This document shows, piece after piece, positions 2,261-18,724 of a DNA stretch of 64,000 nucleotides. This DNA comes from Planctomycetota bacterium (GTDB lineage: Bacteria > Planctomycetota > MHYJ01 > WSZJ01). Positions within the stretch are counted from its first letter, which is position 1; every line of letters begins with the position of its first letter. The notes below the pieces were generated by a model. The model was not told the origin of the DNA, did no database searches, and worked only from the letters and a program-made list of their open reading frames with translations. Position numbers and translations under genes: made by a program. The stretch lies in NCBI GenBank assembly GCA_038060895.1, contig JBBTCT010000022.1, positions 32,001 to 96,000 of the forward strand. The letters are read 5' to 3'.

Positions 2261-3028
2261 TTACGCTCCGCAGCCGCTGCTTTCGATTTCTTCGGGATCG
2301 TCCTCATCGACCGCCTGAGGTTCCGGCGGAATCGGGACCGGCTCCGCGCTGACCTGCCCTGGCGTCACGCCGAGGCGCTTCACGTCCGCTCTCAGGAGGG
2401 CTGCCAGAAGCGCTCCATACGCCTGATGCAGCGGGGAAGGCGCCTTCTTGGCGAGGATCTCGCCGAAGACGGGTCCCCACCGCCCGATGTGGTCCTTCAG
2501 GAACCCACGCGCGGCCTCAAGCGTCCGCTCGGCCCCTTCCGTCTCGCCGCGTTCCAGCGCCAGAAGCTGCTTCACCGCGAGGAAATGCACGAACTCGAGT
2601 TCCAGCCAGGCGTGATCGACGCGTTCCCCGGTGCCGGGCCGCACGCGCAGGCCGAAGGCGCCGTAGAAGGCCGAGACATCCGCGAGGTCCTGCGTCTCCT
2701 GGAACGGATGCGAACTGCCGTATCTCGTTTCGTGAGGCGGGAAGGTTTCAGAAATTGTGTGCCCGTACGTCATGACATGGAGGGACTCCAGCTGTTCGTC
2801 GGTCATATCGCGAAGCTCGCGGCCCACCGCCTCAACGGCGGCTTGCACATCCGCCGCCGCGGCGTCCTCCCACAGTTGCGACAGCGCCGCGCTCGGCAAC
2901 TCTTCTCGAAGGATCTCCGCCAGGCCGGGGCGCGGGTACGCGAAAACACGTGAGAGGAACCGGTAATACGCAGCACGGGCAAAAGCGAGGTCGGACTCCA
3001 GGGCGAGATGGGCGAGCGTGGCGGTCAT
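2261..3028 (-). CDS. TorD/DmsD-family chaperone for the type II DMSO-reductase-family enzyme
   Basis: PPHETRY, LADVSAFYGAFG, ERVDHAWLELEF and FLKDHIGRW motifs; last gene of the nxr operon. Confidence 0.9.
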   Translation of the reverse strand: MTATLAHLALESDLAFARAAYYRFLSRVFAYPRPGLAEILREELPSAALSQLWEDAAAADVQAAVEAVGRELRDMTDEQLESLHVMTYGHTISETFPPHETRYGSSHPFQETQDLADVSAFYGAFGLRVRPGTGERVDHAWLELEFVHFLAVKQLLALERGETEGAERTLEAARGFLKDHIGRWGPVFGEILAKKAPSPLHQAYGALLAALLRADVKRLGVTPGQVSAEPVPIPPEPQAVDEDDPEEIESSGCGA

Positions 3029-3078
3029 GGATGTCTCCCTCAGGGGTCAACCCCGGCCAGGAAAAGTCCCGGCCTGGT

Positions 3079-4353
<1,275 letters not shown>

Positions 4354-4366
4354 GGGTGGAGCCTCC

Positions 4367-4639
4367 TTAGTTGCCCGCCTGCGGAGACGGGCTCCATTCG
4401 CGGAGCACGCCGTCGATCACCCGTTCCACGAACTCCTGCCCTCGCTCGGCCCACACCCTGTGGGTGCCGGCGTAGAACGGGTCCTGAAAGAGCCGGACCA
4501 GCCGCTCGCGGTCGAACCCGGTCAGCAGGAATTCTTCGACCACGGCCTTCGTCATTTCCTCGTCGGCCTTGGGGCCGGCGGGGATGGACATCCCGACGAA
4601 CTCCAGCGGGTCGTCCTCTTCGAATTCCTTTTCCGGCAT
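4367..4639 (-). CDS. small hypothetical protein between nxrA and nxrB
   Basis: 90-aa ORF with RBS, in operon; DDPLEFVG..EEF..LFQDPFYAGTH. Confidence 0.75.
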   Translation of the reverse strand: MPEKEFEEDDPLEFVGMSIPAGPKADEEMTKAVVEEFLLTGFDRERLVRLFQDPFYAGTHRVWAERGQEFVERVIDGVLREWSPSPQAGN

Positions 4640-4723
4640 GGTCGTTTCCCTCAGGAAAGGGCCTTTTTCCGACGTGCGCCCCGGTTCCAGGGCGCCCGGC
4701 GCTTCCTACTTCAAAACCGGTGC

Positions 4724-7700
4724 CTATCCCTTCGTCACCTTGCCCAGCACGTACTTCTTCATGAAGTCGCTCTCGCCGCCCGGCGCGAACCCGCTGGCCG
4801 CCGGCGCCCAGACTCCCTGGCCGTTCATGCCGCCGTTCTCCGCCTTCGTCACCTTGACCAGCGTCTCTTTCGGGACTGTGTTGACGGCATGGTTGTCCGC
4901 CTCGCCGCCGAAGATGAAGCCCATCCTGGCCTTGGCCTTGTGGAAGAGCGAGTCCAGCTGGTGCATCGGCATGAGCCAGCCGCGCGTGACGGACTGCTGC
5001 GAGCCGTACCGGAAGCTCGACTGGTAGCCGGTCCCGTCGGACTGCGCGCGGCCGTCTTCGCGCGTCTCGTGCGCCTTCACGGACTTCTCAGTCGCGATGA
5101 AGGGGGCGTGCTTCATCATCACGGCGCTGTACGGATAGGCCGCGTTGTACTTGGCGCGCAGCATCAGGCGACCGACCTTGTATTGCGGGTCGTCAGGCTT
5201 CCACCCGATGAACGGCCGATCCGCCGGATTCGCGTCCACGTAAACGTAGTCGCCGTCGGCAATCCCCAGGTCCTTCGCTGCCGCCGGGTTGATGTGCATC
5301 TGGTGCTCGCCCACCCCCGGTTGACGCTTGTCGCGCCGGTACGGGTCGCCGAACTGGTTGTTCCAGATGAAGTGCCAGTCCGTGACCTGCCACTGCGAGT
5401 GCGTCGAGTGGCGGGACTTCGGCGTGATGCAGTAGAACTTGAACCCCGCTTCCCACAGCGGATTCTTCGAGTTTTTCACCTCGCTCCACGGCTTCTTGAT
5501 GTTGCGAACCTGCCGTTCGTCCGCGCCCATCGCGGACTCCGGGATCCCGTACGATTCCGGCCGCACCCACGGGTTCGAACTCACGATCACGTTCGGCAGG
5601 TACGGCGTCGCTTCCGGCCCCTCGCGGTGCACGATGAAGTTCTCGCCGTACTCGATGACCTCGTCCTCGTCGTTGTAGGACTGAAGCCGGCCCGTGGGCG
5701 TGTAGAAGGGGAGGCTGTCCGCGATCTGTTCGTAGAACGGGATGCGCGGGTAGGTGCGGAAGAGGAAGAGCGCCGCGCCCGGCTCGCCGTACTTGCCGGC
5801 CATGATGTCCGAGCACTTGTAGCCGCGCGTCGTCGAGCACCCGTCGAGCAGGCGCTGGATGTAGACCTCGTTCCGGCCTTCCCGGGCGAACTTCCAGAGG
5901 TCCCCGACCCGCTGGTCCCCGATCTCGTCGCCAACGGCCTTCGCCGCGAGCGCCATGATCATCGTGTCGTCTTTGGTGTCGTAAACAGGCTTCGTCCCGC
6001 CCTTCCAGATCTGGATGAACGGATTCGAGCAGCATCCGGTGATCTCGAGGTCCTCGAACTCCAGCCAGGTGTTCGCCGCAAAGATGAGATCCGAGTACTC
6101 GACCGTCGAGTTCATCTCGATGTCCGTCCCCACGATCATCTCGATCTTCGTGTTCGTCCGCATGAGCATCTGGTACGCCCACTTTGCGTTGTTGAAGATG
6201 TTCACGTTCGTGTACCAGAGGAACTTCGTCGGCGTCGGCATGTGCGTCGCGCCCGTGAAGGACTTGCGTCCCTTGCCGGGCGTCTCAACAACGAGCGGCT
6301 TGTCGTCGTAGTTCCAGTACGCGGGTTCCTCGTCCTGCGAGTAACCGTGCGCGTGGACGTCCTTCCCGTCGATCTTGTCGTCCATCTCCGGGTGGAAGGG
6401 GTCCTCGGCGATCCAGCCCTTGAACCCGGGCCCGGACCAGGACGAGCCCTGGAAGAGCGCTGCCTTGTAGTTGCCGGCCCACGTATGCGACCCGGCGCCG
6501 GGCAGGCCGATGTTCCCGGTCAGCATGAGCGGCAAGTAGCTGGCCCGGTTCACCTCGGTCGCATGGAACCAGTGATTGATCCCTTCTCCCGTGTGGATCG
6601 CGACCGGCTTGATGGTCGCGATGTCGTCGGTCAGGCGACGGATCAACTCCTTCGGCGCACGGGTGATTTCGTGCACGCTGTCGAGGTCGTAGTCCTTCAG
6701 GTGGACGTTCTTGTAGAGGTCGAAGAGCGGCCGGACCTCGACTTCCTTCCCGTCCACCGTCTTCACCTTGAATGTTCCCTCGAGCGCCGGCTCCACGCCG
6801 AGCTTGTCCCAGAGAGCTCCGACGTCGTCGCGCGTCACGACCTTCGGCCCGTTCGACTTCGTGTCCCAGACCACGAAATCCCCGAGTTTCACGTACTGCT
6901 CCTGCGTCAGCCCGTGCTTCGTGAAACTCGCGCCCTTGCTGATGTCCGGCGAGGCGTAGTCCTTCAAGATGTCCTTCGCCTGCAGCCGCTTCAGCGTGTC
7001 CTGCCGGACGAGCAGCGGGAAATCGGTGAAGCGCTTCACGAACGCCTCGTCGTACTTCTTCTCGTCCATCATGAGCTTGGTGATCCCGAGGAGCAGCGCG
7101 GTGTCGCTGTTCGGGCGGATCGGGAGCCAGTAGTCGGCCTTGGTCGACGGCGGCCCGTATTCGGGCGCGATGACGACAATCTTCGCGCCGCGCTCCATGC
7201 ACTCGACGAAGAAGTGGTTGTCGGCGCGCTTGTTCTCGATGAGGTTTTTGCCGAGCTGGATATGGAGCTTGGTGAAGCGGAAGTCGTTCATGTCGGTGTC
7301 CGAGGTCTGGAGGCCGTGCACGAACGGCTGGCCCGGGGCCTGGTCGCCGTGCCAGGTGTAGTTCGACCAGCTGCGGGCGCCCTTGGCTTCCTTCGCGTCC
7401 ACGCCACGGATCTTCGCGTCCACGAGGGCGAGCGAATTGCCGAAACGGTACATGCCGTACTTGCCGATGACGCCGAGGAGGCCCATGCCGCCGCGGACCT
7501 TGCAGACGCGCGTGCCGGCGCCGCCGTGGTGCAGCAGCATTTCCTCGGCGTACCCCTGCGCGCGGAGCTTGTTCTTCCCTTCTTCGCCGCTGTACCGCTT
7601 GCTGATGTTCACGAGTCCCCTGGCGAAGTACTTGAAAGCGTCGTCCCAGCCGATCTTCACGAGCTCGTCAGTCCCGCGCGAATCGAACTTGTACTTCTTG

Positions 7701-8164
7701 TGGTTGTCGGGAGTGAGCTCGGGGAAGCCGTCGTCCGCCCATTGCTTCCACATCTTGCGGATGAGCGGGTACCGCATCCGGTACGGGCCGTACATCCGGC
7801 GTTGCATGGTGAATCCGTTTGAGCAGCCGCGCGGGTTCCAGTTCACCGTCGCCTTGTTGCCGTAGACATCGCCGATCCGCCCGCTGTCGTAGTTCTGCTC
7901 GCTGCGCAGCACGACCCCGTTGCGGACAAAGGCCTTCATGCGGCACGCGTGCGTGCAGTTGGGCGAGCACACCCAGGTGAAGCTCGAGTCGTACCGGAAC
8001 TGCTCGCGGTAGACCTTCTCCCAGTCGCGCGCTGGATACCCCGCCAGCGGGTCGATGTCCGGGAACGGTTCAAAGGCCCCGAGGTTGAGGCCGCCGGAAG
8101 CGAGGAATGCGGCACTTCCCGCAAGACCTGCGGACTTCAGGAAGTCGCGACGGTTAATGGACAT
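4724..8164 (-). CDS. nxrA: nitrite oxidoreductase / periplasmic nitrate reductase alpha subunit (Mo-bisPGD, Tat-exported)
   Basis: 1146 aa from MSINRRDFLK (twin-arginine); CSPNCTHAC...NPRGC Fe-S motif; WSNYTWHGDQAPG with the Asp Mo ligand. Confidence 0.92.
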   Translation of the reverse strand: MSINRRDFLKSAGLAGSAAFLASGGLNLGAFEPFPDIDPLAGYPARDWEKVYREQFRYDSSFTWVCSPNCTHACRMKAFVRNGVVLRSEQNYDSGRIGDVYGNKATVNWNPRGCSNGFTMQRRMYGPYRMRYPLIRKMWKQWADDGFPELTPDNHKKYKFDSRGTDELVKIGWDDAFKYFARGLVNISKRYSGEEGKNKLRAQGYAEEMLLHHGGAGTRVCKVRGGMGLLGVIGKYGMYRFGNSLALVDAKIRGVDAKEAKGARSWSNYTWHGDQAPGQPFVHGLQTSDTDMNDFRFTKLHIQLGKNLIENKRADNHFFVECMERGAKIVVIAPEYGPPSTKADYWLPIRPNSDTALLLGITKLMMDEKKYDEAFVKRFTDFPLLVRQDTLKRLQAKDILKDYASPDISKGASFTKHGLTQEQYVKLGDFVVWDTKSNGPKVVTRDDVGALWDKLGVEPALEGTFKVKTVDGKEVEVRPLFDLYKNVHLKDYDLDSVHEITRAPKELIRRLTDDIATIKPVAIHTGEGINHWFHATEVNRASYLPLMLTGNIGLPGAGSHTWAGNYKAALFQGSSWSGPGFKGWIAEDPFHPEMDDKIDGKDVHAHGYSQDEEPAYWNYDDKPLVVETPGKGRKSFTGATHMPTPTKFLWYTNVNIFNNAKWAYQMLMRTNTKIEMIVGTDIEMNSTVEYSDLIFAANTWLEFEDLEITGCCSNPFIQIWKGGTKPVYDTKDDTMIMALAAKAVGDEIGDQRVGDLWKFAREGRNEVYIQRLLDGCSTTRGYKCSDIMAGKYGEPGAALFLFRTYPRIPFYEQIADSLPFYTPTGRLQSYNDEDEVIEYGENFIVHREGPEATPYLPNVIVSSNPWVRPESYGIPESAMGADERQVRNIKKPWSEVKNSKNPLWEAGFKFYCITPKSRHSTHSQWQVTDWHFIWNNQFGDPYRRDKRQPGVGEHQMHINPAAAKDLGIADGDYVYVDANPADRPFIGWKPDDPQYKVGRLMLRAKYNAAYPYSAVMMKHAPFIATEKSVKAHETREDGRAQSDGTGYQSSFRYGSQQSVTRGWLMPMHQLDSLFHKAKARMGFIFGGEADNHAVNTVPKETLVKVTKAENGGMNGQGVWAPAASGFAPGGESDFMKKYVLGKVTKG

Positions 8165-9137
8165 TGGAACCCTCCTGAACCTGGGTGTTGGCGCAGCTTG
8201 CCCGGCTTGGAGCAAACCGCGTGCGAAAGACATAGGAGTCAAGGCACTGCCGGCACGCCCCGTCCGCGGGATCCCATCGCGGGAAGTCGGCGCGGACCAT
8301 GCCCAGCGTGATTTCGGGAAGAGCGGCGGCGTTGTCGTGCCACTCGAAGGTAGGGAAGCTGCAGAGCGGGCAGAGCGAGCCCGGGCCGCACGGCGATTCG
8401 GCTGCATCGATGCCGCAGAACCGGAGGAGTTTCTTCGGATGAAGCGAAAGTTCGATAAGGAGAGGCCAGGTGGCTTCCGGCGAGTTCCAGAGAGTTGCGA
8501 GGATTCGCTCGCGCGCCTCGGCGGGGAAGCCGGGATAGTTCCTCGTCACCATCGTCGCCCACTCTTCTTTCTTCGCCGCGCCGCGCTTCCCGGATCGTTC
8601 GATCGCGCCGGCAGCGACGAGATTCCAGAGAACACGAAGCCGGGCGCGGACGAGGTTTTCCTCGGCCGGGCGCGCCGCAATCCGGCCCAGCGCGCGGTAT
8701 TCGAATGCAGGCCGGAGCATGTCCTCGACGTGCTGCAGCTCGTGCCGGAAAAAACCCTCCAGCGCCGATGGGTCGTCCAGGCGGTGCACCCGGAAGAGAA
8801 TGCGAACGTGGGGTTTGCTGCCCGCCGTGACGCACAGATCGGCTCCCTCGTCAGACGCCGTCGCGCAGCGGTCGAGGACCAGCTCTTCTACCGCCGGGCC
8901 CAGCGTCGGATATCCGGCAACGGCCGCTTCCAGCGACCGGGCGAGGCCCAGCTGGCGATAGAAAACCGCGTTGGCGTCGCGGAAACCCGCGTTTCGCTCC
9001 GTCTCCTGCATGGCGTAGAACGGGTCCGTCACGACGTGGAAATCGCGGCTCCATGCGGCGTCCCCGGCGGTTTCGCGCCGGAGGATCTCCCGCGCAACCG
9101 CTTCTTCCAGCAACTCGGGGGCGTATCGCAGTTCCAC
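8154..9137 (-). CDS. hypothetical protein with HExxH motif and C-terminal CxxC pairs, in the nxr operon
   Basis: GTG start after AGGAGAG; RHELQHVEDML, CPLC and CRQC; overlaps the nxrA start. Confidence 0.75.
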   Translation of the reverse strand: MELRYAPELLEEAVAREILRRETAGDAAWSRDFHVVTDPFYAMQETERNAGFRDANAVFYRQLGLARSLEAAVAGYPTLGPAVEELVLDRCATASDEGADLCVTAGSKPHVRILFRVHRLDDPSALEGFFRHELQHVEDMLRPAFEYRALGRIAARPAEENLVRARLRVLWNLVAAGAIERSGKRGAAKKEEWATMVTRNYPGFPAEARERILATLWNSPEATWPLLIELSLHPKKLLRFCGIDAAESPCGPGSLCPLCSFPTFEWHDNAAALPEITLGMVRADFPRWDPADGACRQCLDSYVFRTRFAPSRASCANTQVQEGSNVH

Positions 9138-9148
9138 GGTTCTCTCCT

Positions 9149-10810
9149 CTACTTCAGGACCAGGCGGTACCACGTCGTGACGGACTTCTGTCCGGCGCGA
9201 TCGCCCGCGGCGCCGTCCCAGACGGCGAAGGCGAGCGGAACTTCCGTTCCCGCCTTGAGGGCGATGCAGCATTCGTCCGGCGAAGCGAGCGAGCGGCTCA
9301 TCTGGATCGCCCAGCGACCGTCTTTCCACACTCCCTTGCCCGCGACCGACTGCTTGTCGCTCTTGAGGCTCGTCAGCGTCCCGAATCCTGCGGCGACCGC
9401 ATCCTCAACCGGCGACTTGCGCCCGGGTTCCGAGAACGGGTTTCCCGCGGCACGCCCCGACTGGTACGCGGGATCGTGATCGGGCATCCCGGAAGGCCTG
9501 TTGCCCTTGTTCTCCGTCGTCTTGTCACCCTTCTCGAACGGATACATCTCCACCGCCATCCCCGGGTGGATCGTCTCCACGTCCTTCCACTTCTCGAGGT
9601 CGATCTGCCAGTCCGCCTTCCAGCTCCACACGTTCACCGGCTGGTCCTTCGAGCCCATCGTCACAGGCGTGTCCATGCCCTTCAGCGCGAACATCAGCGC
9701 CGCCGCATCCCGGAAATCCTCGGCGCGAAGCGGCACGTTGTTGTCGGCGCTGTCCTGCCACGAAAGCTGGAAGGCCACCGCCTTTCCGTCGTGTGCGGCG
9801 CGGACCCGGAGCAGGCGCGGGGCCGTGATGCGGCTGAAGAGCAGCATGAGGGGCACGTCGACCGCCGGGATCGAGTCCCAGGCCGCGTCCGCAGGGTCCT
9901 TCGGGAGAGCGGATACCTTGGCGGCGACGAGTTCGCTTCCGGCCGGAAGCGCCGCCGCGAGGGCTTTCGGCGCTTCGCCCGCCAGCGACTGCACGTAGTG
10001 CACGAGGGCCCAGCGCTGTTCGTCGTTCATCTGGTCGGCGCCGTAGGCGGGCATGGGTGTGCCGGACATGCCGGTGGCGAAGCGGAGGTAGATGTCTTTC
10101 GCTGTCGATCCGCCGCGATAAATGCCCTGGGTGAAGTCGTTCGGGCGGATTGGCTGGTCCCAGTCGTCCTTGAGGCCGGCGGCGGAGGGTCCGTCAGAGC
10201 GCCCGGTTTCGCCGTGGCACTTGACGCACCCCGCCTTCACGTACATCTCCTTGCCGAGCGTGCGGGATTTTTCATTGTCTGCGGGCTCGGCGGGGACGGC
10301 GACGGGGGTGCCGGCGCCGCGTTCCTTGAAGAAGTTGTACGGGGCGTCCATCTCGCTGTCCTGGTACTGCGCGAGCTCCTTGACGCGTTCCACGAGCGCC
10401 TTTCGGTCCGCTTCCGGGAGGTGCCGCCACGAGGGCATCGAAGTCCCGGGCATGCCGTTGGTGACGCTGGCGAGGAGGTCTTCGTCGGTCGGGAGCGACC
10501 CGCTGGGCGTCGAGCGGATCTTGAATTTCCCCTTCGAGAAGTCGCGGGGGCGCGGCCAGAGAAGGTAGGCCGCCGTACCGTCGCCCCTGCCGAGGGTGCC
10601 GTGGCAGACGGCACAGTTCGATTCGAAGAGTGCCTTGCCGTCGGCGGCCGCGTTGCCGCCGGCGCCGCCGCCCGCGCCATCACCGCCGAGCGAAACGGGA
10701 GAGGGACCCGACGGAGGTGCGGGGCGCTGCTGGCAGGCCGCGATCCAGAAGACGGACGAAGCGAAGACGGCTAGGGCCGTTTTGTTCAAGAGACTGGTTC
10801 TGCTCGTCAT
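9149..10810 (-). CDS. lipoprotein: diheme cytochrome c fused to an EbdC/NxrC-like heme b domain (candidate gamma subunit)
   Basis: lipobox IAAC; CAVCH and CVKCH; C-terminal MG..PVNVWSWKA and AVWDG..DRAGQK (Met/Lys heme ligands); RBS GGAGGAGG. Confidence 0.85.
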   Translation of the reverse strand: MTSRTSLLNKTALAVFASSVFWIAACQQRPAPPSGPSPVSLGGDGAGGGAGGNAAADGKALFESNCAVCHGTLGRGDGTAAYLLWPRPRDFSKGKFKIRSTPSGSLPTDEDLLASVTNGMPGTSMPSWRHLPEADRKALVERVKELAQYQDSEMDAPYNFFKERGAGTPVAVPAEPADNEKSRTLGKEMYVKAGCVKCHGETGRSDGPSAAGLKDDWDQPIRPNDFTQGIYRGGSTAKDIYLRFATGMSGTPMPAYGADQMNDEQRWALVHYVQSLAGEAPKALAAALPAGSELVAAKVSALPKDPADAAWDSIPAVDVPLMLLFSRITAPRLLRVRAAHDGKAVAFQLSWQDSADNNVPLRAEDFRDAAALMFALKGMDTPVTMGSKDQPVNVWSWKADWQIDLEKWKDVETIHPGMAVEMYPFEKGDKTTENKGNRPSGMPDHDPAYQSGRAAGNPFSEPGRKSPVEDAVAAGFGTLTSLKSDKQSVAGKGVWKDGRWAIQMSRSLASPDECCIALKAGTEVPLAFAVWDGAAGDRAGQKSVTTWYRLVLK

Positions 10811-10873
10811 GCTGCGCCTCCTCCGGATGGTGAATCGCGATTTCTGCGCGCGGAATGCCCGGTGAGGGGCGGA

Positions 10874-10889
10874 CGCAAATGGTGCGCCG
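10874..10889 (-). promoter_or_regulatory. sigma54-like promoter of the nxr operon
   Basis: minus strand CGGCGCACCATTTGCG. Confidence 0.55.
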
Positions 10890-10964
10890 CGGGCATTCCG
10901 CGAGTGGGGAGGGAGGTGGCGCCGGGAAGTGTGAGCGCGGGACTCCGCGAAAGGCGTGGAAAAA

Positions 10965-10983
10965 TACTTAATGCCATTAACTA
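10965..10983. promoter_or_regulatory. operator palindrome, site 1 (nxr/cox divergent region)
   Basis: TACTTAA-TGCCA-TTAACTA. Confidence 0.8.
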
Positions 10984-11270
10984 TTACTCCGGCCGCTGCC
11001 GCGAGGAGCGAGGCCAACAAAAAGGCCCGGCGCCCCGACCGGCGGGATCGGAGACGCAGGGCCGGGCGGGAGGTCCCGCCCCACTGCTATCCCGGCTGCG
11101 AAACCGGGAGGGGATTTGATTCAGTGAGGGCTCGCTCCGCAAATGCCGGGCCCTCTTCCGCCGGGAAGCGACCCGCGGGGCGCCGTGTGATTCCGCGGAA
11201 TCTTCCCCGCACGCGGCGGACTATTTCCCATCCGGCGCCGATTCCCCCTGCGCAGGTCCACAAGCCGCCC

Positions 11271-11366: not shown

Positions 11367-12167
11367 ATGATCCGCATGTCCCAGCTTGCCCCTGCCGTCC
11401 TTTCCCTGGCGATCGCAATTCTGGCCTCCGGCTGCGGCGATTCGAGCAGCGAACCCGGCGCGGGCGAAGGCAAGCCGGCCGACGGCGCCGGGCAACCGAC
11501 CGGTCCGGAAGTGAAAGTAGACACCGCCACCGCAGGCACGATCTCAGGCGCCGTGAAATTCGAAGGAGCGGCCCCGACCGAGCGCGTCAACTCCGCCGAG
11601 GCAGACGCCTTCTGCCACTCGAAACACCCGGAAGGGATCAAGAGCGAATCGGCCGTCATCGGCGCCGGCGGAGAACTCGCCAACGTCTTCGTCTGGATCA
11701 AAAAGGGAATCACCGGCAAATTCCCGCTTCCGTCAGAACCCGCCGTGCTCACGCAGAGCGGCTGCCGCTACGAGCCGCATGTGCTGGGGCTCCGGAACGG
11801 ACAGGATCTCGTCGTCAAGAACGACGACGACACCATGCATAACGTCCACTCCCTGCCGAAGGCCAACGAGGAATTCAACTTCGCGCAGACGAAGAAGGGG
11901 GACGAAGCGCGGAAGAAGTTCTCTTCGCAGGAAGTGATGGTCAAGTTCAAGTGCGACGCGCACGGGTGGATGAGCTGCTACGTCGGCGTCGTCAATCACC
12001 CCTACTTCGCGGTCACCGCCGCTGACGGAAAATTCGAGCTCAAGAACGTGCCGCCCGGCGAGTACGAAGTCGAGGCGTGGCACGAGAAGTTCGGGAAGCA
12101 GTCCCTGAGCGCAAAGGTTGAGTCGAAGGGGACCGCCACTCTCACCTTCACCCTGAAGGAGAAATAG
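11367..12167 (+). CDS. lipoprotein with cupredoxin-like and carboxypeptidase-regulatory-like domains
   Basis: lipobox ASGC; GCRYEPHV, HNVH and KCDAHGWM (Cys/His/Met copper-type motif). Confidence 0.8.
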   Translation: MIRMSQLAPAVLSLAIAILASGCGDSSSEPGAGEGKPADGAGQPTGPEVKVDTATAGTISGAVKFEGAAPTERVNSAEADAFCHSKHPEGIKSESAVIGAGGELANVFVWIKKGITGKFPLPSEPAVLTQSGCRYEPHVLGLRNGQDLVVKNDDDTMHNVHSLPKANEEFNFAQTKKGDEARKKFSSQEVMVKFKCDAHGWMSCYVGVVNHPYFAVTAADGKFELKNVPPGEYEVEAWHEKFGKQSLSAKVESKGTATLTFTLKEK

Positions 12168-12171
12168 CCGG

Positions 12172-12993
12172 ATGCCCAACAAGCGCGGAGCGGTCTCGGC
12201 CTGGCTGCTGGCCTCGCTTCTGATCCTGTTCACGATCCTCACGGTGGGCGCGTTCTTCGTCCTGAAGTGGCGCCCGGACGTGGCGAGCGAGCACGGGAAA
12301 GGCGTGGACAAGATGATCCTGTACATCATCTTTGCCGCGGGGTTCATCTTCGTCGTCGGGCACCTCGTCCTCTCCGCTTTCCTTGTGAAATTCGGCGGCA
12401 AGAACGGGGCGACCTACAAACCGATGACGCACAGGGCCGAGATGCTCTTCACGATCGGCCCGGTCGTCTTCATGGTCGCGGTGTCGGAGCTGGGAGTCCT
12501 CGCGATCGGCGGACCGGTGTGGAACCAGGTGTACACCCACCAGTCCGGCGACCTCGTCGTCGAGATCACGGCCAAGCAGTACGAGTGGATCTCGCGGTAT
12601 CCGGGGAAGGACGGGAAGTTCGGCCGAAAGCGCCCGGACCTTTTCGACGACCAGGAGAATCCGCTCGGTCTCGACCCGAAGGACCCGGATGCGAAGGACG
12701 ACATCGTGATCCGCGGCGCCGTGTACCTGCCCGTGGGGAAGGGCGCCTGGTTCAACATCCAGTCGTGGGACGTCCTGCACAGCTTCAACGTCCCGGTGCT
12801 CCGCTCGAAGCAGGACGCCGTTCCCGGATTGACGACCCACACGAGGATTCTTCCGACCGTGATCGGGCGTTACGAGATCTCCTGCGCGGAAATCTGCGGG
12901 CCCGGCCACTACAAGATGCGCGGGTTCGTGAACGTGAAGTCGGAAGCGGATTTTTATAAGTGGCTGAAATCGCAGGTGGGCTGGTTCGAGTAA
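12172..12993 (+). CDS. coxB: cytochrome c oxidase subunit II
   Basis: two TM helices; DVLHSF and CAEICGPGHYKM CuA motif. Confidence 0.95.
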   Translation: MPNKRGAVSAWLLASLLILFTILTVGAFFVLKWRPDVASEHGKGVDKMILYIIFAAGFIFVVGHLVLSAFLVKFGGKNGATYKPMTHRAEMLFTIGPVVFMVAVSELGVLAIGGPVWNQVYTHQSGDLVVEITAKQYEWISRYPGKDGKFGRKRPDLFDDQENPLGLDPKDPDAKDDIVIRGAVYLPVGKGAWFNIQSWDVLHSFNVPVLRSKQDAVPGLTTHTRILPTVIGRYEISCAEICGPGHYKMRGFVNVKSEADFYKWLKSQVGWFE

Positions 12994-13115: not shown

Positions 13116-14861
13116 TTGGCGATCGCGCAAGCGGCAAGGCCGGGGACTCACGAGTCTCACGTGCACGACGGTGGGCACTCGATCGGATTCGTCCGCAAAT
13201 ACATCTTCAGCACGGATCACAAGGTGATCGCCGTCCAGTACATCCTCATGGCGATGCTCATGAGCGTCGTCGGGCTGGGGCTGTCGCTCCTGTTCCGGAT
13301 CCAGCTGGCCTGGCCCGGGAAGGCAGGAATGACGCCGGAGCAGTACGTGAGCTACGTGACGATGCACGGCACGATCATGATCTTCTTCGTCGTGTCGCTG
13401 GCGCTGTCCAGCGGCCTGGGGAACTTCAGCATCCCGCTGCAGGTCGGCGCGCGCGACATGGCTTACCCGCTGCTGAACATGCTGTCCTTCTGGGTCATCG
13501 TCCCCGCGGCCGCCATCATGATCCTCTCGTTTTTCGTCGAGGGCGGAGCCGCCGCCGGCGGGTGGACCGCTTACCCGCCTCTCAGCGCGCTCTCAGGATT
13601 CGGGAAAGTCCCGAGGGGCTCGCCCGGCTCGGGGATGGGCCAGACGCTGTGGCTCCTCGCTATGGCGCTCTTCATCGTCTCCTTCACGATGGGAGGCCTG
13701 AATTACGTCGCCACGATCCTGAACCTGCGCGCCCGCGGGATGAGCCTCATGCGCATGCCGCTCACGGTGTGGACCTGGTTCATCGCGGCCCTCCTCGGGC
13801 TCCTCAGCTTCCCTGCACTTACGGCGGCCGCGATCATGCTGCTTCTCGATCGCCACCTGGGCACGAGCTTCTTCCTGCCGTCAGGGCTCGTCGTCTCCGG
13901 CCAGCAGGCCGTCAACGCAGGGGGCACGCCTCTCCTCTTCCAGCACCTCTTCTGGTTCCTCGGACACCCGGAGGTCTACGTCCTCGTCCTCCCGGCCATC
14001 GGCATCGCCTTTGACGTCCTCGCCGCCTTCTCGCGGCGCCCGCCGCATGGCTATAAATACAGCGTCGGAGCCCTGCTGATCATCGCCTTCCTCGGCATGA
14101 TCGTCTGGGGCCATCACATGTTCACCAGCGGCATGAACCCGTTCCTCGGGAAGTACTTCTCGATCTCCACGCTCCTGATCACCGCGCCTTTCGCGATACT
14201 CGGCGTCAATCTTCTCGCCTCCCTCTGGCGCGCCCGCATCCGCTTCACGACCGCCATGCTCTTCGCCCTCGGGCTCATCTCCGCCGTAGGCACGGGCGGC
14301 ATCGGCGGCCTCTTCCTCGCCACCGCGACCGCCGACCTCCACTTCCACGACACCTACTTCGTTGTCGGCCACTTCCACCTCATGATCGGCGTCGTCACCA
14401 TGACCGGCACGTTCGCCGGGATCTACTACTGGTTCCCCAAGATGTTCGGGCGCTACATGAACGAAACCCTCGGCAAGCTCCACTTCTGGGGCACGTTCAT
14501 CGGCGCCTTCGCCGTCTTCGTCATCCAGCACTTCCAGGGCTTCGGCGGCATGACCCGCCGCTACTTCGAATACTCCGCCGACTACGTCAAGCCCGCCGTG
14601 GCCCTCAATCCGGCCGTCACCGTCTTCGCGTTCCTCGCCATCGCCGCGCAGCTCCCGTTCTTCTTCAACTTCTTCTGGAGCATGTTCAAGGGGAAGAAGG
14701 CCGAAGCGAATCCGTGGGAAGCGACGACGCTGGAGTGGACGACGGCGACGCCGGTGCCGCACGGGAACTGGGACCGCTTGCCGGTCGTGTCGGGCGATCC
14801 GTACGGGTACGCGGCGGGGCCGGACGGCAACGCGCACCGCATGCAGAATGCGGAGGGGTAA
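13116..14861 (+). CDS. coxA: cytochrome c oxidase subunit I, A1 type
   Basis: TDHKVI, TMHGTIM, FWFLGHPEVY, WGHHM, HDTYFVVGHFH. Confidence 0.97.
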   Translation: MAIAQAARPGTHESHVHDGGHSIGFVRKYIFSTDHKVIAVQYILMAMLMSVVGLGLSLLFRIQLAWPGKAGMTPEQYVSYVTMHGTIMIFFVVSLALSSGLGNFSIPLQVGARDMAYPLLNMLSFWVIVPAAAIMILSFFVEGGAAAGGWTAYPPLSALSGFGKVPRGSPGSGMGQTLWLLAMALFIVSFTMGGLNYVATILNLRARGMSLMRMPLTVWTWFIAALLGLLSFPALTAAAIMLLLDRHLGTSFFLPSGLVVSGQQAVNAGGTPLLFQHLFWFLGHPEVYVLVLPAIGIAFDVLAAFSRRPPHGYKYSVGALLIIAFLGMIVWGHHMFTSGMNPFLGKYFSISTLLITAPFAILGVNLLASLWRARIRFTTAMLFALGLISAVGTGGIGGLFLATATADLHFHDTYFVVGHFHLMIGVVTMTGTFAGIYYWFPKMFGRYMNETLGKLHFWGTFIGAFAVFVIQHFQGFGGMTRRYFEYSADYVKPAVALNPAVTVFAFLAIAAQLPFFFNFFWSMFKGKKAEANPWEATTLEWTTATPVPHGNWDRLPVVSGDPYGYAAGPDGNAHRMQNAEG

Positions 14862-14863
14862 GC

Positions 14864-15424
14864 ATGCTGATGAAAATCGAAGCGTGGGGAAGGGAAGAGA
14901 GGGACTCGGCGGAGCTGCCGGAGTCGGTGCGGGCTGAGACGTGGCAGACGCTCACGTACCTGATGATTGCCGGCGGGATCATGCTGTTCACGACGTTCAC
15001 GGCCTCGTACCTGGTGCGGCGGCAGAGTCCCGACTGGGCTCCGGTGCGGTTGCCCGCGCTCGTCTGGGCGAATCTCGCGGTGGTCGGCCTGGCGAGCGTC
15101 ACGATGGAACTGGCCCGTCGCGGCCGCGCCTCGGCTCGCCCGTGGCTGGGTGCGACGATCGGGCTAGGCCTGCTCTTTGTCGCCGGACAGGCCCTGGCCT
15201 GGCGCCAGCTCGCGGCCCAGGGAGTGTTCTTGACGACTTCGCCGCAGGCCTCTTTCTTCTACATGCTCACCGCCGTGCACGCGGCGCACGTCGCGGCAGG
15301 GCTCGCCGTGCTCCTGGCCGCGTTGCGGCGCGCCGGCACGAAGCCGCTCGGCCTGTGCGCCGCCTGGTGGCACTTCGTCGGCGCCGCCTGGGCCTGGGTC
15401 GTGATGCTGCTGAACTTCTTCTAG
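14864..15424 (+). CDS. cytochrome c oxidase subunit III-like protein (first copy)
   Basis: FFYMLTAVHAAHV, WWHFVG; hydrophobic. Confidence 0.85.
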   Translation: MLMKIEAWGREERDSAELPESVRAETWQTLTYLMIAGGIMLFTTFTASYLVRRQSPDWAPVRLPALVWANLAVVGLASVTMELARRGRASARPWLGATIGLGLLFVAGQALAWRQLAAQGVFLTTSPQASFFYMLTAVHAAHVAAGLAVLLAALRRAGTKPLGLCAAWWHFVGAAWAWVVMLLNFF

Positions 15425-15427
15425 GGG

Positions 15428-16048
15428 ATGGCGATGAACCCGACCGCTGTGACGGGGCATGAAGCGGCGTCCGAGGAATCGGAACCCGGTTTCTACGGGA
15501 CGTCGTGGCAGAAGCTGATGATGTGGTGGTTCATCATCGGGGATGCCATCCTCTTCGGCAGTTTCCTCGCCGCCTACGGCTTCGCCCGCATCTCCGCCGG
15601 GAGCTGGCCCGACCGGACGCAGATGTTCAGCATGAACTTCATCACGGTGATGACGTTCACCCTCATCACCTCCAGCGCGACCATGGCCACCGCCGTCGCC
15701 GCTTCCCGCCGCGGCGACCGCAAGGCAGCCTTCAACTTCACGATGGCCACGGCCATCGGAGGCATCGCCTTTCTCGGGATGCAGGCGTACGAGTGGTACC
15801 ACCTGATCCACAACGGCGCGCGCATGGGCACCAACCCCTGGGGCGCCCCCGCGTTCGGCGCGTACTTCTTCACGATCACCGGCTTCCACGGCTCCCATGT
15901 CGCCTCCGGCGTGCTGATCCTGCTCATCACCGCGTGGAATGCGAAGCGCGGGAAGAGCGGACCCGAGGGCGTCGAGCTCACAGGGTTGTACTGGCACTTC
16001 GTCGACCTCGTCTGGGTATTCGTCTTCGGCTGCTTCTACCTCATCTAG
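15428..16048 (+). CDS. coxC: cytochrome c oxidase subunit III
   Basis: FFTITGFHGSHV, GLYWHFVDLVW. Confidence 0.93.
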   Translation: MAMNPTAVTGHEAASEESEPGFYGTSWQKLMMWWFIIGDAILFGSFLAAYGFARISAGSWPDRTQMFSMNFITVMTFTLITSSATMATAVAASRRGDRKAAFNFTMATAIGGIAFLGMQAYEWYHLIHNGARMGTNPWGAPAFGAYFFTITGFHGSHVASGVLILLITAWNAKRGKSGPEGVELTGLYWHFVDLVWVFVFGCFYLI

Positions 16049-16056
16049 GACGCGAC

Positions 16057-16323
16057 ATGAGCGACACCCACCCGGAAGCGAGCTACAGGTCGTACTGGAT
16101 TGCCTGGGGAATCCTGCTGGTCCTGACCCTGGTGATGATCTCGATTTCGAGCAAGGCGCTCCTGCTCGGCGGGATCCTGGTGAAGTCCGTCATCATCGGG
16201 GCGTGGTTCATGCACCTGAAGCACGAGCGCGCGATCCTGATCTGGAGCGTGATCGCGGGAGTCCTGTTCGCAGGGTTCCTGTTCTTCCTGATCTCGTTCG
16301 ACGCGGGGGTGTCGGTCCTGTGA
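16057..16323 (+). CDS. cytochrome c oxidase subunit IV
   Basis: three TM helices with K..I..WFMHLKHE motif. Confidence 0.85.
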   Translation: MSDTHPEASYRSYWIAWGILLVLTLVMISISSKALLLGGILVKSVIIGAWFMHLKHERAILIWSVIAGVLFAGFLFFLISFDAGVSVL

Positions 16324-16574
16324 AGCGGCTCCTTCCCATTGCGCTGTGGCTGTTGCTGGCTCCGGCGGCGTGGGCGGGGAGCTGATGAAAAGGGGACGAC
16401 CCGGGTCCGGCGGACCTGGAACCGGCGCAGCGCTCGCGACTCGGGACGCTGATGCTGATGACGGTTCCCTACCCGCTCATGGCCGGGTTCATGGCGCTGG
16501 CGTGGTGGCAGCAGCGGAAGCGGCGCGCTGCCTCCGCAGAGACAATTTGCGTGGACGGTTCCGGGGACAAGTAG
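16320..16574 (+). CDS. candidate selenoprotein (two tandem in-frame UGA), small exported membrane-anchored protein
   Basis: GTGA overlap with subunit IV; signal peptide ending AWA; TGA-TGA at 16383-16388; frame stays open through a TM helix and RKRR to TAG at 16572-16574. Confidence 0.6.
16401..16419 (+). promoter_or_regulatory. bacterial SECIS-like hairpin
   Basis: CCGGGTCC-GGC-GGACCTGG; the G-starting loop begins 20 nt after the second UGA. Confidence 0.5.
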
Positions 16575-16590
16575 TAAAGTGCATTAACTA
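16572..16590. promoter_or_regulatory. operator palindrome, site 2
   Basis: TAGTAAA-GTGCA-TTAACTA, 15 bp upstream of the start at 16606. Confidence 0.8.
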
Positions 16591-16605
16591 ATCAGGAGCC
16601 ACCTC

Positions 16606-17004
16606 TTGCGCGTCGCCATTCCGGTCACGACAGGCCAGATTCCCAATCACCTGGGCCACTGCACCTCGTTTCTCTTCGCCGACGTGGAAGAGGGCCGCGT
16701 GCTGCGCGAAGAGCTCCTTCCCAATCCCGGCCACGGCCCCGGGGGCCCTCCGCCCGCCTTCCTGGCCCGCAGCGGCGTGACGCACCTGCTGGCTTGGGGA
16801 TGCCCGCCTCCCGCCCTTGAGATGTTCGACGAGGTCGGGATCAAAGTCGCGCTCGGCGCGACGGGGGACGCGAAGGCTGCCCTGCGCGCCTGGCTCGAAG
16901 GGACCCTGAAGCCCGTTTCCGATGGCCTGGACGCCGGAGGCGGGTGCGGCCCGAGCTCTTTGGATGAGGGAAAGGTGCGCGGAGGATGCGCCGGCGGCCA
17001 TTGA
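16606..17004 (+). CDS. NifB/NifX-family (FeMo-cofactor-binding-like) protein
   Basis: RVAIP..HLGHC..F, NPGH, and a Cys/Gly-rich tail. Confidence 0.8.
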   Translation: MRVAIPVTTGQIPNHLGHCTSFLFADVEEGRVLREELLPNPGHGPGGPPPAFLARSGVTHLLAWGCPPPALEMFDEVGIKVALGATGDAKAALRAWLEGTLKPVSDGLDAGGGCGPSSLDEGKVRGGCAGGH

Positions 17005-18724
17005 GTTTCTCAGCCGCGCCGGCTTCCTGCGCGTTGTCCCCACACCCGAGGAGATCGAAGCCCTGTCACCGAAGCGCCGGAAAAAAGTCCTCCTGACCAG
17101 CGTGTGCCGCCCCCTTGGGGAAAGCGCCGGGGACTCCCCGAGCGTAGGCTACGAACTCCTCCACTGCCAGGTCACCCGCGCCCAGGGCATCTTCAGCCCC
17201 CGGTCTCACCACATTCACTTCTCCCTCGAGTACATCGCGCAGAATCTCGAAGCGCCGACGGTGGTGCTTCAGTACCCGTCGAAGCGCGAACTGATCCGTG
17301 AGCTCAGGAAGGGCTATGACGTCGTCGGGGTGTCCTTCGTCATGCCGACTTTTCACCGGATGAAGGAGGTCGTCGCCCTCATTCGGGCGCACTCGCCCGA
17401 CGCGCAGATCGTTCTCGGCGGCTACGGAACTGTCCTCGGGGAGCAGGTCCTGCGGCCGTGGTGCGACCACATTTGCCGCGAGGAGGGCGTCGGGTTCATG
17501 CGCCGTCTCCTTGGCGAGACGGAGATTCCGCTTCCGTACGACCACCCGATGATCGTCAACCCGCTCCGGGTTTTCGGAAAGCAGGTCGGGCGGACGGGAA
17601 TCGTGTTCGGCGGGCTGGGTTGCCCGCACGGTTGCGATTTCTGCTGCACTTCTCATTTCTTCGCCCGCAAACACATTCGCCTTCTTCCCACCGGTGCGGA
17701 CATCTACGGCGTGATCCGGCGGTACCTCGACGTGGATCCGAACATGTCGATCCTCGTGATCGACGAGGATTTCCTCCTGAACCGCAAGAGGGCCATGGAA
17801 CTGCGCGAGTGCGTGCAGGCGGGCGGCGTTCCGCTGAGCATCTTCGTGTTCGCGAGCATCAAGGCGCTCACCCAGTACTCGGTGACGGAAATCATGGAAA
17901 TGGGAATCGACGGGATGTGGATCGGCTATGAAGGGACGCGCTCGGGGTACTCCAAGCAGCAGGGACGGCCCGTGGGGGATATCTTCCGCGAGTTTCGCGC
18001 GCATGGGATCAGCATCCTGGCGTCGATGATCGTCGGATTCCCCTACCAGACGCCGGAGATCATTGAGGAAGAGCTGACGGGGCTTCTCGATCTGCACCCT
18101 GACCTGGGGCAATTCCTGATCTACGGCCCGTCCCCCGGGACGCCGTTCTACGAATCCGTCAAAAAGCAGGGGCTGTTCCACCAGGAGTACGTCGATGACC
18201 CCGAGCTGTACTACAAAAAAGCCAGCGGCTTCTTCTCCATGGTCCGGCATCCGACGATGTCCGCCGGCCAGATCGAGGCCGAACAGAGACGTTGCTTCGA
18301 CGAGGACTTCCGCCGTCTCGGCCCTTCGATCTTTCGCGCGCTTGAAACCTGGCTTCTGGGCCATCTGAAGCTGAAAGACTCTCCCAGCGCCTACCTGCGC
18401 GCGAAGGCGGCCAGTTTCGCCGCGGACTTGCGCAGGTCCTACCCCGTCTTTCTCGCCGGCCGCCTGCTCGGCCCGAACCGGAAGGTCCGCCGCTGGATCG
18501 GCGAGCTGGAAGCGCGAATCCACGCCGCGCTGGGAAAGCCGACACTTCTGGAGCGCGTGCAATCCGTGGCGGCGATCGGTGCGGCGGCGTGGACGGGAAT
18601 CAAACTCAAGCTGGGGCTGTTCCAGCACGTGCCGCTGAAGCGCGGCGAGTGGCGGATGGAAGAGACCCGTCGGTCCCTGTCGGCGCCCTCACCCGAAGTC
18701 CGCGTCGCCGCAGGGACGCCCTAG
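16964..18724 (+). CDS. cobalamin-binding radical SAM protein (start uncertain)
   Basis: GCPHGCDFC (CxxxCxxC); N-terminal B12-binding-like domain (DVVGVSF..IVLGG). Confidence 0.85.
   Translation: MRERCAEDAPAAIEFLSRAGFLRVVPTPEEIEALSPKRRKKVLLTSVCRPLGESAGDSPSVGYELLHCQVTRAQGIFSPRSHHIHFSLEYIAQNLEAPTVVLQYPSKRELIRELRKGYDVVGVSFVMPTFHRMKEVVALIRAHSPDAQIVLGGYGTVLGEQVLRPWCDHICREEGVGFMRRLLGETEIPLPYDHPMIVNPLRVFGKQVGRTGIVFGGLGCPHGCDFCCTSHFFARKHIRLLPTGADIYGVIRRYLDVDPNMSILVIDEDFLLNRKRAMELRECVQAGGVPLSIFVFASIKALTQYSVTEIMEMGIDGMWIGYEGTRSGYSKQQGRPVGDIFREFRAHGISILASMIVGFPYQTPEIIEEELTGLLDLHPDLGQFLIYGPSPGTPFYESVKKQGLFHQEYVDDPELYYKKASGFFSMVRHPTMSAGQIEAEQRRCFDEDFRRLGPSIFRALETWLLGHLKLKDSPSAYLRAKAASFAADLRRSYPVFLAGRLLGPNRKVRRWIGELEARIHAALGKPTLLERVQSVAAIGAAAWTGIKLKLGLFQHVPLKRGEWRMEETRRSLSAPSPEVRVAAGTP

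Follow-up and report, generated by a model that had tools for sequence, protein, structure and literature searches.

Selenocysteine (Sec, U) insertion in bacteria is taught as one UGA codon and one hairpin, the Sec insertion sequence (SECIS), at a fixed short distance. The only published case of consecutive Sec-Sec that we found is the algal PDI_e, whose GUGUU motif contains two consecutive Sec residues and which is described in the text of its own report as the first Sec-Sec sequence (PMC7539508). Here we analyze a small gene at positions 16320-16574 of a 64,000-nucleotide (nt) stretch of a Planctomycetota genome (assembly GCA_038060895.1, contig JBBTCT010000022.1, positions 32,001 to 96,000; the whole stretch is called the window below), which is the last gene of a COX2-COX1-COX3-COX3-COX4 cytochrome c oxidase (cox) operon and contains two adjacent in-frame TGA codons. 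We put the probability that this small cox-operon protein carries two adjacent Sec residues at about 0.8, a judgement that comes from sequence comparison. The predicted protein and PDI_e would be alike in their two consecutive Sec residues. However, PDI_e as described is eukaryotic, has a thioredoxin fold and depends on a distant SECIS in the 3' untranslated region that is not tied to codon position (PMC7539508). In the bacterium, both codons would have to be served by a hairpin that lies downstream at a short, fixed spacing.

Other described selenoproteins share parts of this arrangement. The 119 prokaryotic selenoprotein families tabulated in the main text of a 2026 inventory include several C-U and UxxU motifs but no U-U motif and nothing resembling the small protein (PMC13188914). 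The redox-motif selenoproteins described there (DsbA-like, thiol:disulfide interchange and Trx-like proteins with UxxC or CxxU motifs) likewise have UGA at the position of a redox or metal-binding cysteine (Cys), Cys homologues, a SECIS directly downstream and a distribution confined to Sec-utilizing genomes. Unlike them, the small protein is without a thioredoxin fold or known domain, would have about 65 mature residues with one transmembrane (TM) helix, and carries its dyad at the very N-terminus, with no spacer between the two residues in the subfamily that we call B-type. The vicinal C-U selenoproteins SaoC, MbdU, KCU-star, HgcA and SaoL possess adjacent Cys-Sec, as do the C-U members of the present family, and the same text reports that metal or metalloid ligation has been proposed for SaoB, SaoC and UXX-star (PMC13188914). 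Those families differ in that their NCBIfam models do not match the small protein, in that they belong to mercury or arsenic loci rather than a cox operon, and in that here the Cys itself can become Sec. The C-terminal G-C-U-G of thioredoxin reductase and the UxxU diselenide of fish SelL are redox-active pairs with a similar vicinal selenenylsulfide or diselenide, but they are eukaryotic and sit in a large flavoenzyme or a Trx-like fold instead of a membrane-tethered peptide. Sco, PCuAC, TlpA and Cox11 are assembly factors for the CuA and CuB centers and are likewise membrane-tethered, with periplasm-facing Cys pairs, and encoded beside oxidase genes; the small protein has no sequence relationship to them (Pfam, NCBIfam), is far smaller and is without a folded domain.

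The original prediction, made from the letters of the window, was of a hidden gene with tandem UGA-UGA in the oxidase operon, encoding a signal peptide, a TM anchor with a PY motif and a basic stop-transfer. The frame 16320-16574 does contain TGA-TGA at 16383-16388, and its translation and the homologue alignments returned each of these protein features. UGA is an ordinary stop elsewhere, as had also been claimed, for example at the end of coxIV. The parts of the gene, all on the forward strand, are as follows.

16320-16574 (+): B-type small selenoprotein gene (candidate), 84 codons, GTG start, TAG stop followed by TAA; homologues in 19 genomes
16320-16376 (+): predicted signal peptide, with MKR, a hydrophobic core and an A-W-A end
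16383-16388 (+): TGA-TGA dyad, read as Sec22-Sec23; among the 19 B-type genes the first position holds Cys or TGA and the second holds TGA in every case, and library proteins have Cys-Cys
16401-16419 (+): SECIS-like hairpin, 8-bp stem, GGC triloop, the loop starting 20 nt past the second UGA (UGA2) and 23 nt past the first (UGA1)
16440-16508 (+): TM helix L41-W63, 23 residues, with a conserved P-Y/F motif, from homologue alignments and a ratio of nonsynonymous to synonymous substitution rates (dN/dS) of 0.32 downstream of the UGAs
16509-16571 (+): basic stop-transfer QQRKRR and short cytoplasmic tail; the R/K-rich stretch after the helix is conserved in homologues

The frame reads V(GTG)KRLLPIALWLLLAPAAWAGS-TGA-TGA-KGDDPGP...GDK-TAG, and its GTG at 16320 shares the letters GTGA with the TGA stop of the COX4_pro gene (16045-16323). 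Very probably, 16320-16574 is a genuine gene that is translationally coupled to coxIV and in which both UGAs are decoded as Sec by means of the single hairpin at 16401-16419.

Signal-peptide cleavage follows the AxA rule, by which the site would lie after A-W-A, and an A-x-A-like end before the dyad is seen in most homologues. The residues G-S separate A-W-A from TGA-TGA, and a Pro/Asp-rich linker lies downstream of the dyad. Positive residues after a TM helix are a cytoplasmic-side signal, which together with the AxA rule suggests the topology of the small protein. Removal of the signal peptide would give a type-I membrane protein of about 65 residues with the periplasmic N-terminus G-S-Sec-Sec-K, in which the dyad would face the periplasm, two to three residues into the mature protein, and would be followed by a linker of about 17 residues, one TM helix and a basic cytoplasmic tail. 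The possibility that the small protein is a lipoprotein was rejected. The lipobox consensus is L-[AS]-[GA]-C, with the Cys as the first mature residue; no lipobox is present, the residues before the dyad being A-G-S, A-A-D, G-K-S or A-Q-A, and the AxA-type end two to three residues earlier fits signal peptidase I.

Homologues of the gene carry Cys codons where this genome has TGA. A search of the genus with TGA read as Cys found a counterpart in six of the seven other genomes, three with TGA-TGA and three with TGC-TGA at the same two codons, and both flanks of the dyad align at 36-76% identity among the genus homologues. A profile built from these found TGA-TGA genes in other families of the class, and stop-free C-x-x-C relatives. 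The phylum-wide scan of 401 genomes produced 103 match rows in 90 genomes. The loci examined (n = 96) comprise 91 of the 103 rows and five members from earlier homologue searches; the rows set aside are four matches to the C-terminal half only (G030:C58, G022:C111, G019:C2 and G025:C106) and the eight weakest. One locus, L115 (G154), is without a Cys/Sec motif and stands outside the tally of the remaining 95, which is given here.

CxxC: 36 loci
UxxC: 35 loci
U-U: 14 loci
C-U: 5 loci (G003, G004, G005, G382, G407)
CxxU: 5 loci

Judged by these motifs the family is composed of two subfamilies, an A-type with [C/U]xx[C/U] and a B-type with [C/U][C/U], and Cys and TGA alternate at each position. 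The 14 U-U genes come from 14 genomes of several families and are 20-76% identical. Both types occur together in eight genomes including this one, which has an A-type CSMC gene on another contig (G000:C27:22196-22423, reverse strand). A G-F/Y...M-P-F/Y motif in the helix is conserved family-wide. When 1.84 billion representative proteins were searched with a profile, 1652 matched at E <= 0.001; among the best 150 of these, 142 are CxxC, five have adjacent C-C and three are truncated calls starting after the TGA (e.g., P0046). The five C-C proteins carry an L-G-D-D-P-like linker after the motif, as in the U-U genes. Thus Cys was found at the UGA positions as C-TGA within the genus, as Cys-Cys in the protein library and as CxxC in the sister subfamily, which is the pattern that the original prediction had proposed to look for, and the small CxxC genes in cox operons that it mentioned correspond to a real family that has no name. 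The A-type is a widespread, unannotated UxxC selenoprotein subfamily. In its UxxC members (35 loci within L061-L131) a signal peptide ending A-F-G/A is followed by U-P-x-C-K-E-A-V-A-S, and the E-A-V-A-S peptide is largely the SECIS hairpin read in frame.

It could be argued that the locus is a pseudogene, or that its stops were created by assembly or sequencing error. The genome of the window is a draft (5.4 Mb, 47 contigs, 86.5% complete), and the site has been confirmed in assembled contigs of two studies, not in raw reads. However, contigs of these two independent studies keep TGATGA: X3 is identical over 16331-16481, and X10, which covers 16332-16600, has 13 differences, with none of the 12 listed falling in TGATGA or the hairpin. 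Read by eye against the frame, the X10 differences leave seven codons synonymous and four nonsynonymous. The same TGA-TGA in the 14 genomes noted above, with C-TGA in five more, also stands against an error, as does the implausibility of a chance pair of adjacent nonsense changes at both redox positions. Purifying selection downstream of the UGAs had been anticipated and is seen in dN/dS values of 0.32 (this genome versus G002, 59 codons) and 0.28 (G003 versus G004, 55 codons), and in the family-wide conservation of the TM helix. Decay or error is hardly a credible explanation for the locus.

The genome encodes what Sec insertion needs. The check for Sec machinery that had been suggested found all of it: tRNA-Sec (71.7 bits, anticodon TCA), SelA, SelB, and a SelD whose gene has an in-frame TGA of its own at the canonical site. 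A formate dehydrogenase, FdhA, is also encoded with TGA in the site CNRT-U-HAPSV. Both known genes have a hairpin close behind the codon; that of selD is GGGUCC-GGC-GGACCU and has its loop at +20, counted from the U of its codon (17 nt after the UGA), and that of fdhA has a 7-bp stem and a GGUCU loop at +21 (18 nt after the UGA). Across the family, TGA forms are found in 54 of the 84 genomes with a member. In 53 of these there is a strong SelA match, and in the one left, which is 67% complete, SelB is present. Where the SelA match is weak or absent, as in 16 family-bearing genomes, all members are Cys forms and none is a TGA form. These co-occurrences are given as counts with no statistical test, and related genomes are not independent.

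This distribution bears on a second alternative, in which there are two small open reading frames (ORFs), one for a 21-residue leader-like peptide ending at TGA-TGA and one for a TM peptide of about 40 residues starting at ATG 16452. TGATGA is a common and efficient tandem stop, with 2607 copies in the genome on both strands, so that the hexamer alone is not diagnostic of Sec; an in-frame ATG ORF (16452-16574) is indeed present in the downstream half; and gene callers annotate downstream parts separately, as in the truncated library protein P0046. Nevertheless, TGA forms are confined to genomes with Sec machinery and the hairpins go with TGA forms only, and uninterrupted Cys homologues align over both halves. 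The first in-frame Met sits within the TM helix, and the stretch from the UGAs to that Met is conserved as protein, with D-P and G-F-R/K motifs. We consider two separate peptides very improbable.

An 8-bp hairpin with a G-starting loop 20 nt past the second UGA had been predicted, and it is present at 16401-16419, with arms CCGGGUCC (16401-16408) and GGACCUGG (16412-16419) around the loop GGC (16409-16411), the eight pairs including one G-U. The minimum free energy (MFE) of the 22-nt hairpin is -13.7 kcal/mol, and one of 200 shuffles folds as well. As given in the main text of PMC13188914, the bacterial SECIS consensus has an apical loop of 3-9 nt, an upper stem of 4-16 bp, a G as the first or second loop nucleotide (mostly G[G|U]), a spacing of 16-37 nt and an MFE <= -7.5 kcal/mol. 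The hairpin satisfies this published consensus in loop, stem, loop G, spacing (20 and 23 nt) and MFE, for both codons. Its 15-nt core occurs exactly twice in the 5.4-Mb genome, and the other copy is the core of the selD SECIS, letter for letter, so that the proposed comparison with bacterial SECIS elements came out in favor of the hairpin. Among 12,048 sampled TGA triplets of the genome, 0.2% are followed at +18 to +30 by a GG-loop hairpin of at least 8 bp and 3.5% by one of at least 5 bp. Judged by this background rate and by the shared core, the arrangement clearly exceeds chance expectation.

Within the genus (this genome and six homologues) the hairpin stems vary (CCGGGUCC, GGAUCA, GGCUUCGGA, CCCCGGA and others). 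Six inner pairs form in all seven sequences, with two to four pair types each, and the loops are GGC, GGA, GGU or GAUU/GGAUUC; this table was anchored by hand on the loops and leans toward structure, MAFFT having put three of the seven out of register. The formal covariation test was instead run on all 35 UxxC genes, in a gap-free alignment. A GG-loop hairpin is present in 28 of these 35 genes, 27 of them with GGUC at exactly +20 (6-7 bp stem), and in none of the 36 CxxC genes at the homologous place. In the UxxC alignment 88.6% of cells pair, against 70.2% in shuffles, and double-change cells number 30 against 8.5. The covariation score of 0.433 compares with 0.123 in shuffles, none of 500 scoring as high, and with <=0.161 in slid controls. 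Among the five CxxU loci (L105, L112, L132, L133 and L134), two form a 7-bp stem that carries the loop AGGUC or AGGUG at +22, and all five are negative by the stricter criterion of a GG start.

A third alternative accepts recoding but not Sec-Sec. One UGA would be Sec and the other would be read by a near-cognate tRNA (Trp or Cys), or else termination would prevail and the full-length protein would be a minor, selenium-regulated product. The spacing between UGA and SECIS in E. coli is fairly strict, which counts in its favor, as does the lack of a demonstrated precedent for one bacterial SECIS serving two codons. Efficiency counts for it too, the text of PMC4513850 giving 30-40% recoding per UGA in E. 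coli, which predicts a low yield for two events. Yet both positions independently alternate between Cys and TGA in the family (C-U, U-U and C-C), which is the signature of Sec at each. Moreover, single-Sec relatives place the loop at +20 to +29, and both codons of the U-U genes lie within this tolerated range. In the genus, the single-Sec C-U genes have the loop at +26 to +29 from the UGA, and the U-U genes have it at +23 to +26 from UGA2, which is +26 to +29 from UGA1. We regard a mixed or mostly terminated decoding as improbable, though less so than either of the other two alternatives.

For Sec-Sec, the preferred reading, the proposed mechanism is that SelB and Sec-tRNA-Sec decode both UGAs, guided by the hairpin at 16401-16419, and that another SelB ternary complex would be loaded as the ribosome pauses on UGA2. 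One SECIS would then serve two adjacent codons, which is plausible because single-Sec relatives tolerate loop positions of +20 to +29, and the local SelB system appears to accept this approximate range. B-type genes outside the genus (L057, L059, L082, L087, L091, L117, L120, L125 and L141) have two conserved hairpins after the dyad, one whose loop is at +16 and one whose loop, a GGN triloop, is at +38. Neither of these hairpins alone fits the 16-37 nt spacing for both UGAs, as that spacing is stated in the text of PMC13188914.

Several points weigh against Sec-Sec. The 48-nt stretch after the first UGA folds no better than shuffles (z = -0.31; 76 of 200 as stable), and folding energy alone is uninformative at 66% G+C, so the case rests on comparison. 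The loop is 3 and 6 nt farther from the two UGAs than the selD loop is from its own, and 2 and 5 nt farther than that of fdhA. Two successive recodings would be costly, with low yield, if efficiency were like that of E. coli (30-40% per UGA in the text of PMC4513850). TGATGA also serves as a true tandem stop, as at the COX4 end in G014. The protein is short, hydrophobic and compositionally simple, which makes E-values alone weak, and the comparison genomes are all drafts or metagenome-assembled genomes. The one RNA run, X11, covers 16000-16132, upstream of the small gene. For function, the evidence is confined to position, topology and vicinal Cys/Sec chemistry.

The family is absent from the resources searched. 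Neither Pfam (15 family members tried) nor NCBIfam (13 tried) gave a match near the cut-off, and no Pfam match ties the small gene to the Sco, PCuAC, Cox11 or COX4 families, COX4_pro being the preceding gene. PDB sequences contained no relative (best E 0.19), all Rfam matches were far below gathering scores, and neighbors in the ESM Atlas were clusters of "hypothetical protein" only. We found no literature account of the family, or of a UU motif in any bacterium, supplementary tables (for example, the planctomycete selenoprotein candidates in Table S9 of PMC4807772, or Table S2 of PMC12013277) being outside the scope of that search. The main texts of the deep-Sep report (PMC12013277) and the 2006 survey (PMC1794560) make no mention of the family. 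The adjacent-Sec arrangement would be new within bacterial Sec recoding, and the family is unannotated. There is a somewhat better than even chance that this is the first natural bacterial Sec-Sec protein, in which one SECIS recruits SelB twice and a vicinal diselenol/diselenide at the N-terminus of a membrane-tethered periplasmic peptide acts on the copper centers of an aa3-type oxidase (or on their Cys ligands), and that it belongs to a widespread unannotated family of the phylum.

If this is true, the bacterial recoding window is several nucleotides wide. A conserved UGA-UGA with one hairpin in 14 genomes would show the SelB-SECIS complex reloading on a paused ribosome and would set a natural bound on spacing tolerance, which would be useful for engineering proteins that contain diselenides. 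It would also mean that a selenoprotein family has been overlooked by gene callers, Pfam and NCBIfam even though its TGA forms occur in 49 of the 401 phylum genomes sampled. Selenium would be linked to aerobic respiration by a Sec-bearing accessory peptide of cytochrome c oxidase, and, as a motif for copper or redox biochemistry, vicinal Sec-Sec would be chemically unusual.

The surroundings of the gene are listed below.

11367-12167 (+): lipoprotein (L-A-S-G-C), first gene of the cox operon, with a type-1-copper-like H...C-x2-H-x2-M pattern and a C-terminal CarboxypepD_reg domain
12172-12993 (+): COX2 with a complete CuA ligand set (Pfam/NCBIfam; CuA motif read in the sequence)
13116-14861 (+): COX1 (Pfam/NCBIfam)
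14858-15424 and 15428-16048 (+): two COX3-like genes (Pfam/NCBIfam)
16045-16323 (+): COX4_pro (coxIV-like) gene with a TGA stop (Pfam PF03626, E 8.3e-6)
16606-18724 (+): NifX/NifB-like (Nitro_FeMo-Co) protein, beginning about 30 nt past the small gene, then a B12-binding radical SAM protein

The position after COX4 is conserved. Seventeen of the 19 B-type genes lie directly 3' of COX3-COX3-COX4 on the same strand, and the two exceptions are a gene at a contig end and one without a cox gene within 1.5 kb. Either type of gene can take this place in the operon: in G014 (L152, G014:C24) an A-type CAMC gene, of the CxxC form, fills the slot after COX4, overlapping the genuine TGA-TGA tandem stop of COX4. 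A cox gene was found within 1.5 kb of 26 of the 76 A-type genes by tblastn with the window's proteins, an insensitive query. In G003, G004 and G005 (L146-L148 and L153-L155) the cox operon is present as two tandem copies spaced about 5.5 kb apart, and a B-type (C-U) gene follows the second copy only.

The vicinal selenol pair would be tethered at the periplasmic face of the membrane beside the oxidase. Our preferred, though tentative, proposal is that, while the oxidase is being assembled, the small protein handles Cu(I) or maintains the cysteines of CuA in reduced form, and this role is favored because the COX2 encoded here has a CuA site. The next choice is a redox-active or protective small subunit. 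The conserved G-F/Y...M-P-F/Y motif of the helix would be compatible with docking on the oxidase. A search for PCuAC in this genome (86.5% complete) found none. A possible role of the lipoprotein at 11367-12167 is that of a cupredoxin donating electrons to the oxidase.

A second aa3-type oxidase locus of this genome, on another contig (G000:C27:14691-22423), consists of Sco1, COX2, COX1 (45% identical to that of the window) and COX3, followed by the A-type CSMC gene on the opposite strand. The NifX-like and radical SAM genes downstream of the small gene are conserved as neighbors in G000 (the genome of the window) and G002 only and are not part of the unit. A maturation of the small protein by these two genes, in the manner of ribosomally synthesized and post-translationally modified peptides, was ruled out on the same grounds.

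Divergent from the cox operon, on the reverse strand at 2261-11020 of the window, lies an operon of the type II dimethyl sulfoxide (DMSO) reductase family, with the following genes.

9149-11020 (-): gamma subunit with an EB_dh domain and two cytochrome c domains
4724-8407 (-): molybdopterin alpha subunit
3079-4353 (-): 4Fe-4S beta subunit
2261-3028 (-): NarJ-like chaperone

Enzymes of the nitrate, nitrite, chlorate and selenate types all have this build. A GAF-PAS histidine kinase is encoded beside the operon at 312-2132.

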